Of a DNA stretch of 64,000 bases, positions 54,521 through 55,954 are shown in pieces. Every line of letters begins with the position of its first letter. The stretch's first letter is position 1. The notes below the pieces were generated by a model. That model saw only the letters and a program-made list of their open reading frames with translations, was not told the DNA's origin and did not search any database. The position numbers and the translations under genes are program-made. This DNA is from Escherichia phage RB16, in the sequence record NC_014467.1, one strand, 5' to 3'.

Positions 54521-55954
54521 ATGAAAACTTTTAATGAACTGAATAGCATCATCACCTCAACCGATTCCTACAAAGTGTCCCACTGGATGCAGTATCCGAA
54601 AGGCACTGACGCAGCGATGTTCTATATTGAATCTCGCGGTGGTAAATTTGATGAAGTCGTAACCGCTGGCGTTAACTACGTTGCGCGGGTTCTCGCTGAA
54701 CCAATTACCATGAAGCAGGTTGAGTTAGCGCGGGTACTTTACCGTAAACACTTCGGAAAAGAGATCTTTAACTACGAAGGGTGGAAAAAGATTGCTGAAC
54801 TGGGTTATACCCCTGTAATTTTCCGTGCGATCCCAGAAGGTACGGTTGTTCCGGTGAAAAATGCCGTTGCGACTGTGTACGCCGAAAACGAGTTCTCGTG
54901 GCTGGCTGGGTGGCTGGAAACAATGACGATTCGCGGTATCTGGTATCCGTCATCTGTAGCAACGCTATCGCGTGAGTGTAAAAAGGTTCTGGCACACTAC
55001 CTTGATATGACTTCTGACCTTACTGGTGAAGCATATAACATCACACTGGGTACACGTCTGCATGATTTTGGGGCGCGGGGCGCGACCTCTGCTGAATCTG
55101 CTGGCATTGGTGGGCTGGCACACCTTTATAACTTCATCGGCACTGATACCGTAGAAGGGATGATTATGGCAATCAGCCTCTTTGCGGATTATCAAACACT
55201 GTTTGATGAAGTTGAAAACGTAGAAGTGGCTGGGGTTTCCATCCCTGCTCGTGAGCATTCAACTACGATTTCCTACGGTAAAGAAAACGAAGACGAAGCA
55301 TATAAAAACAGCATTGAAATGTTCGGTGATGGGTTCTACGCTTGCGTATACGATTCATGGGACTACAAAGCCGCTGTTGACCGGATCGATAGTTATAAAG
55401 AGAAAATCATTGCATCTGGCGGTGTGTTGGTAGTGCGTCCAGACTCAGGGGATATGATCGACAACATCATGTACACCTTGCGCAAACTGGGGCAAATCTT
55501 CGGATATACTGTCAACTCCAAAGGGTACAAAGTTCTTCATAACTCTGTTCGTATCATCCAGGGTGACGAGATCCACGGGCCTGAAACAATCAACCGTGTA
55601 TTAAGCTGGATGGAAGCGAACAAATGGTCGAGCGAAAACATTGCGTTCGGTATGGGTGGCGGTTTGCTGCAAGAAGTTACCCGCGATACCCAGAAATATG
55701 CTGAAAAACTTTGCGCTATCCGTATCAACGGTGTGTGGAAAGGCGTTTACAAATGCCCGAAAGGTTCGGAATGGAAAAAGAGCAAGAAAGGTTTATTGAT
55801 GACCATCACTAACGGGATGGAATTCAAGACAATCGATTCTCTCGAAGAATCTATTCCTGTTGGGTGGTTTGATGCGATGGTAACTTATTACGACAATGGT
55901 TATCTGAACAAAACCAACACTTTAGGGGGAATTCGTGAGCGTAGCCGGATTTAA
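54521..55954 (+). CDS. nadV: nicotinamide phosphoribosyltransferase (Nampt/NadV)
   Basis: 477 aa; N-terminus MKTFNELNSIITSTDSYKVSHWMQYPKGT and overall pattern typical of Nampt-family enzymes. Confidence 0.88.
   Translation: MKTFNELNSIITSTDSYKVSHWMQYPKGTDAAMFYIESRGGKFDEVVTAGVNYVARVLAEPITMKQVELARVLYRKHFGKEIFNYEGWKKIAELGYTPVIFRAIPEGTVVPVKNAVATVYAENEFSWLAGWLETMTIRGIWYPSSVATLSRECKKVLAHYLDMTSDLTGEAYNITLGTRLHDFGARGATSAESAGIGGLAHLYNFIGTDTVEGMIMAISLFADYQTLFDEVENVEVAGVSIPAREHSTTISYGKENEDEAYKNSIEMFGDGFYACVYDSWDYKAAVDRIDSYKEKIIASGGVLVVRPDSGDMIDNIMYTLRKLGQIFGYTVNSKGYKVLHNSVRIIQGDEIHGPETINRVLSWMEANKWSSENIAFGMGGGLLQEVTRDTQKYAEKLCAIRINGVWKGVYKCPKGSEWKKSKKGLLMTITNGMEFKTIDSLEESIPVGWFDAMVTYYDNGYLNKTNTLGGIRERSRI

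Follow-up and report, generated by a model that had tools for sequence, protein, structure and literature searches.

The nadV gene of Escherichia phage RB16, located in a 64-kb window (the whole stretch of DNA analyzed here), very probably encodes one half of a complete, physically split pathway for NAD+ salvage that resembles NadV/NatV of KVP40 and is called NARP2 in the naming of Osterman et al. (bioRxiv 10.1101/2024.02.11.579819). The initial annotation of this DNA had presented the gene as a Nampt without a visible partner adenylyltransferase and had placed the partner either outside the window or among the host enzymes. The former was found to be the case, with an intact NatV encoded on the window's own contig. 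The picture of an unpartnered Nampt was an artifact of the window boundary, and a published survey already labels the protein Nmnat associated. The source region is that of an RB43-type T4-related phage (genus Pseudotevenvirus). In these RB43/RB16-type phages the NadV/NatV pair is already known, being an ordinary pair that is catalogued and annotated in relatives. The nadV DNA was 99.9% identical to that of Buttiauxella phage GuL6 and 98.5 to 98.7% identical to that of RB43, the encoded protein was identical to GuL6_248, and the gene order around nadV was shared with phages GAP161 and GuL6.

The nadV gene and its surroundings

The following features were recorded at the nadV locus.

54508..54511 (+), GGAG, Shine-Dalgarno-like as read from the sequence, presumed to act as such, 9 nt 5' of the nadV ATG
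54521..55954 (+), nadV, encoding a Nampt of 477 aa, an ORF from ATG to stop codon inclusive with domain and structure matches
55935-56243, conserved 102-aa ORF (phrog_7497)
55999..56023 (+), G+C-rich hairpin with a trailing T-run, 45 nt past the nadV stop codon, found by consensus scan

Judged from its sequence, the product of 54521-55954 is a genuine full-length phage Nampt (NadV), and the earlier recognition of a Nampt-type enzyme at this position was borne out by Pfam, PHROG, NCBIfam, and PDB matches and by the catalytic residues. Pfam searches detected NAMPT_N (PF18127; E = 1.4e-24) and NAPRTase (PF04095; E = 3.2e-38), and the protein matched PHROG 448, "nicotinamide phosphoribosyl transferase," at an E value of 1e-162. 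It scored 455 bits with NCBIfam PRK09198, for which the cut-off is 405; the label of that model reads "nicotinate," an old name of the NadV family. Residues 5 to 475 aligned with 7yqo, a bacterial Nampt of solved structure (E = 4e-104), and the alignment with mammalian NAMPT (2gvl_A) spanned the full product (E of about 1e-85 to 4e-85). In the latter alignment, the motifs TDSYK, HDFG.RG, IQGD, and FGMGGG were kept, and residues D209, H246, R306, and D308 were equivalent to D219, H247, R311, and D313, respectively. In mammalian NAMPT, we take Asp219 to be responsible for nicotinamide specificity, His247 to be the phospho-histidine, and Arg311/Asp313 and Gly383-384 to be catalytic or substrate residues.

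The hairpin at 55999..56023 consists of a 10-bp stem with 6 G-C pairs followed by TTTTTTG and is possibly a terminator or an RNA-stability element. Its role is uncertain because the site falls within the conserved ORF at 55935-56243, and the 9 terminator-like sites returned by the scan, versus 6.5 expected, make for weak evidence of a terminator. A sigma-70 promoter scan around nadV gave 7 sites, compared to 11.9 expected from shuffled sequence. The T4 late-promoter motif TATAAATA was present in 9 copies in the window versus 2.6 expected. These copies were located at 33162-46452 (+) and 3730-4858 (-), all of them 5' of structural or late genes, and no copy was found near nadV when the window was scanned.

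The nucleotide-metabolism genes rnlB, dam, nrdC, and nrdD surround nadV, and no obvious anti-defense island was recognized. On its 5' side are encoded the RNA ligase RnlB, a protein of the DprA-like/SLOG type, and three conserved proteins without an assigned function. The DprA-like/SLOG-type protein (194 aa; 52643-53227, plus strand), which lies between rnlB and nadV, matched phrog_768 at an E value of 2e-58 and reached only 22.8 bits, under the cut-off, with Pfam DNA_processg_A; GAP161 also keeps this protein. Apart from the RNA ligase, an ORF for a Zeta-toxin-like P-loop kinase was found at 48043-48876 (-) (Pfam E = 2.6e-7), and 1 of the 18 ORFs swept in the 44.7- to 63.9-kb region matched HAD_SAK_2 (E = 2e-29), a HAD domain known as "Swiss Army Knife RNA repair". 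These two ORFs suggest putative RNA-repair functions beyond RnlB.

A SegE-like GIY-YIG ORF of 359 aa at 57404-58483 (+) occupies the interval between nrdC and nrdD in RB16, whereas in GuL6 and GAP161 this interval holds gp49, Endonuclease VII. A tblastn search of the window for an Endonuclease VII homolog found none (best E = 0.96). RB16 has been described as being without gp49, and an alternative nuclease has been proposed (Petrov et al. 2010, PMC2993671). Elsewhere in the window, homing-endonuclease-like ORFs and one ORF with a CapR homology domain were located at 6699-7454 (-), 12319-12996 (+), 39773-40411 (+), and 27841-28614 (+), inserted among baseplate, neck, and capsid genes. The homing-type domains were GIY-YIG/NUMOD3, HNH/NUMOD3, and GIY-YIG with the I-TevI DNA-binding domain, and these insertions are in line with published descriptions of RB16 as rich in genes for homing endonucleases. 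In addition, a homolog of the anti-CBASS protein Acb1 (173 aa) is encoded at 2713-3234 (-), beside the dNMP kinase gene, with a Pfam PF23474 match (E = 3e-48) above the cut-off; therefore, the phage has at least one other counter-defense gene.

Location of the NMN adenylyltransferase

A phage NatV profile and E. coli NadD and NadR served as queries against the window, which was translated in six frames into 690 stop-to-stop segments no shorter than 40 aa. No NMN adenylyltransferase (NMNAT) was found in these segments, the sole match under an E value of 1 being the NudE ORF (E = 0.042), which was recovered via the Nudix half of the profile. As a positive control across NMNAT classes, E. coli NadR recovered phage NatV at an E value of 1e-7. 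Pfam searches of 35 hypothetical or accessory ORFs in the window detected no CTP_transf_like domain, no Prs domain, and nothing for NAD synthesis; these ORFs gave homing endonucleases, Acb1, UvsY, dNMP kinase, an NrdG-like radical SAM protein, and similar matches. The profile, NadD/NadR, and Pfam searches were therefore in agreement with the initial annotation, in which no NMNAT had been visible in the window. Its further statement that no ORF has the (H/T)xGH signature did not stand literally, with 4 occurrences in the six-frame segments (NrdD, the NudE C terminus, and two antisense fragments), but it did stand for a nucleotidyltransferase context, in which none of the 4 was placed. These occurrences were rejected as NMNAT candidates and regarded as chance matches. 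The NUDIX protein at the beginning of the window, previously judged too small to be a fused enzyme, was likewise confirmed as a single-domain product.

560..973 (-), NudE-like Nudix hydrolase, 137 aa, stand-alone (Pfam NUDIX E = 2.5e-16; phrog_1185 E = 1e-56)

No nucleotidyltransferase domain was found in this ORF, and it is fused to nothing.

An exact 60-mer of the window start matched IMG/VR contig UViG_648936715_000001, and the next 3172 of 3172 bases were identical; therefore, the window corresponds to bases 96001-160000 of this contig. When IMG/VR was searched with the GuL6 NatV protein, seven loci were obtained, one of which (L011) was on the window's own contig and held the following gene.

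Contig 77775-78836 (L011:9998-11059) (-), natV, encoding an intact NadM-type NMNAT-Nudix protein of 353 aa (ORF, motifs, and Pfam)

This gene is on the strand opposite to nadV, at a distance of about 71.7 kb from it, and is separated from the left edge of the window (base 1) by 17,165 bases. The initial annotation had held that a canonical NMNAT nearby would make this a routine two-gene module; an NMNAT does exist outside the window, but the two genes are not adjacent. NatV carries the nucleotidyltransferase motif GRFQPFHNGH, with HNGH at aa 18 to 21 from the ATG (17 to 20 in the translated segment), a second motif of the (S/T)xxxxR type, SATDLR, and the C-terminal Nudix box GHKNANETFLDCAIRELLEE, in which R replaces the last consensus G. 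Both Pfam domains, CTP_transf_like (E = 1.9e-8) and NUDIX (E = 1.8e-14), were above their cut-offs. The GuL6 ortholog, GuL6_138 (78021-79079, minus strand), is annotated "putative bifunctional adenylyltransferase/Nudix hydrolase," carries the same CTP_transf_like and NUDIX domains, and aligned end to end with the NCBIfam bifunctional NMNAT/Nudix models (PRK05379) at an E value of 2e-75. Its best score of 254 bits was below the PRK05379 equivalog cut-off of 397, and NatV is therefore to be read as a family member and not as a proven equivalog. None of the immediate neighbors of natV is NAD related; they comprise small unknown ORFs and the genes for a ProQ-C-like and an SPFH/Band 7 protein. The SPFH/Band 7 protein (308 aa; L011 8893-9819; Pfam E = 2e-15) adjoins natV.

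The dN/dS ratio was 0.09 for nadV compared to GAP161 and 0.07 to 0.12 for natV compared to three relatives, values (about 0.07 to 0.12 together) that indicate purifying selection on both genes. The two genes are co-inherited across the genus, with the pairing found in essentially all relatives; both are present in about 60 related Pseudotevenvirus genomes and in about 115 genomes of Slopekvirus-like Klebsiella phages. At 80% nucleotide identity or above, nadV was present in 61 phage records, and NatV was present in 60 at 80% amino acid identity or above; KKP_3664, a 61.6-kb partial record among the 61, may account for this gap. In the band of 60 to 80% amino acid identity, which consisted mostly of Klebsiella phages (Slopekvirus-like), 117 nadV records and 115 NatV records were obtained. 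The nadV-natV spacing was about 71 to 72 kb in RB16, GuL6, RB43, and GAP161, that is, wherever both coordinates were read. As in RB16, the Pseudotevenvirus phages RB43, GuL6, and GAP161 encode both enzymes, with nadV and a "bifunctional NMN adenylyltransferase/Nudix hydrolase" annotated.

Pathway assignment and alternative readings

The NadV/NatV salvage pathway of KVP40 was described by Lee, Li & Miller 2017 (cited in PMC9503650). According to Osterman et al., the KVP40 Nampt homolog makes NMN, and KVP40 NARP2 restores NAD+ and enables phages to withstand type I Thoeris and DSR2. RB16 resembles KVP40 in having a KVP40-clade Nampt and a NadM-type NMNAT-Nudix protein in one T4-related genome, with no Adps found in the contig pieces searched or in GuL6. 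The nadV product was ~51% identical to the Nampt of nt-1, a KVP40-like phage, and RB16-type NatV was ~40% identical to the homologs of KVP40-like Vibrio phages. Moreover, no NatV was found within 12 kb on either side of nadV in nt-1, so the genes are nonadjacent there as well. The RB16/RB43 pair differs from that of KVP40 in its enterobacterial host range and diverged sequences. Bacterial salvage systems composed of NadV and NadM-Nudix (the PRK05379 family) share the domain architecture of both enzymes; however, the NatV ortholog score of 254 versus 397 bits points to a divergent phage lineage.

If the enzymes act as those of KVP40 do and as is usual in NAD salvage, Nampt would condense nicotinamide and PRPP to NMN, and the adenylyltransferase half of NatV would then make NAD+ from NMN and ATP. 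The Nudix half of NatV, being of the ADP-ribose pyrophosphatase type, could, in principle, cleave ADP-ribose to AMP and ribose-5-phosphate or hydrolyze NAD+, and host Prs would turn ribose-5-phosphate into PRPP. In this way, the nicotinamide and ADPR released by NADase defense effectors would be recycled into NAD+. By analogy with KVP40, we infer that NAD+ would increase in RB16-infected cells and that the phage would be protected from Thoeris, DSR, and SIR2-HerA. The benefit to the phage may be counter-defense, a general supply of NAD+, or both.

We considered the possibility that the protein is instead a NARP1-type Namat, a nicotinamide ADPR-transferase whose partner would be Adps, a Prs-like ADPR pyrophosphokinase, and not an NMNAT. 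NARP1, composed of Adps and Namat, occurs in Bas63, SPbeta-like, and Felixounavirus phages, and its Namat shares Pfam domains PF18127 and PF04095 with Nampt (Osterman et al.). Since these domains are shared, Pfam annotation by itself cannot separate the two enzymes; the fold is shared as well, and both pathways end in rebuilt NAD+. Against a Namat, the nadV product was only 25 to 31% identical to its homologs in Felixounavirus, Staphylococcus (Kayvirus), Listeria, and Bacillus phages, lineages that have Adps-associated members (Osterman et al., Table S2), compared to the ~51% identity with the KVP40-clade Nampt, which places it in the other clade; this clade placement consists of pairwise identities and a published label and not of a tree. 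That label, given in Table S2 of Osterman et al. to RB16 HM134276_00238 and to the GuL6 copy clustered with it, is "Nmnat-associated," and the nadV product of the window was the same as HM134276_00238 over all 399 residues printed there. Nmnat is also encoded by 94% of the phages with a KVP40-like Nampt (Osterman et al.). The partner found in RB16 is an NMNAT, and the expected substrate of its Nampt would be PRPP and not ADPR-PP. With E. coli Prs as the phmmer query, no Prs or Adps was detected (best E = 0.78) among six-frame segments from the window, from two other pieces of its contig (L005 and L011), and from the complete GuL6 genome; NARP1 is therefore excluded by the lack of a Prs/Adps homolog in the closest complete genome, GuL6. 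With the identities, the Table S2 label, and the absent Prs match all in opposition, a Namat identity was rejected as extremely improbable. For a KVP40-type Nampt, it could still be argued that the enzyme is an orphan whose NMN is converted to NAD+ by the host, via NadR or via PncC, NadD, and NadE. The 64-kb window encodes no NMNAT, and enterobacterial hosts possess routes for NMN through NadR and PncC. A ΔpncC ΔnadR strain has been built as this kind of control (bioRxiv 10.1101/2024.02.11.579819). However, the intact NatV in the same genome, maintained under purifying selection, and the pairing of nadV with NatV in essentially all relatives make an orphan Nampt very unlikely. Since a phage NatV is present, there is no need to invoke a host enzyme in place of the partner; the host routes for NMN may contribute, although they are not required to explain nadV.

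With the complete NadV/NatV pathway as the preferred reading, its purpose was weighed separately. The pair might mainly feed phage metabolism, that is, NAD+-consuming ADP-ribosyltransferases and nucleotide metabolism, and not act against immunity. NAD+ levels go up with NARP2 also in cells that carry no defense system, consistent with earlier results on KVP40 (bioRxiv 10.1101/2024.02.11.579819), and nadV is placed among rnlB, dam, nrdC, and nrdD and not in an obvious anti-defense island. On the other hand, phages facing Thoeris or DSR2 are directly rescued by the KVP40 pair, RB16 also carries the counter-defense gene Acb1, and the two purposes are not mutually exclusive. A predominantly metabolic role is thus possible, although we are inclined to doubt it. 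A further thought concerns the conserved separation of ~72 kb between nadV and natV, which might mean that Nampt is not tied only to NatV and has a second job, in a module with its neighbors (RnlB, the DprA-like/SLOG protein, and the three conserved proteins) that would deal with NAD+- or ADPr-derived defense signals or with NAD-capped or damaged RNA. Viral SLOG domains have been proposed to process ADPr-derived signals (Iyer et al. 2022). Such a second role is speculative, and we consider it improbable.

Meaning for NARP2 in T4-related phages

The apparently unpartnered Nampt arose because a 177-kb genome was cut into a 64-kb window, and RB16 nadV does not belong to the roughly 6% of phage Nampt genes without Nmnat. 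In T4-related phages, the NARP2 genes are typically unlinked, being ~72 kb apart here and nonadjacent in nt-1; therefore, searches based on operons or windows will find the pathway less often than it occurs. As phages of E. coli, RB16 and RB43 would offer a convenient native setting for testing NARP2 against the NAD+-depleting defense of this host.
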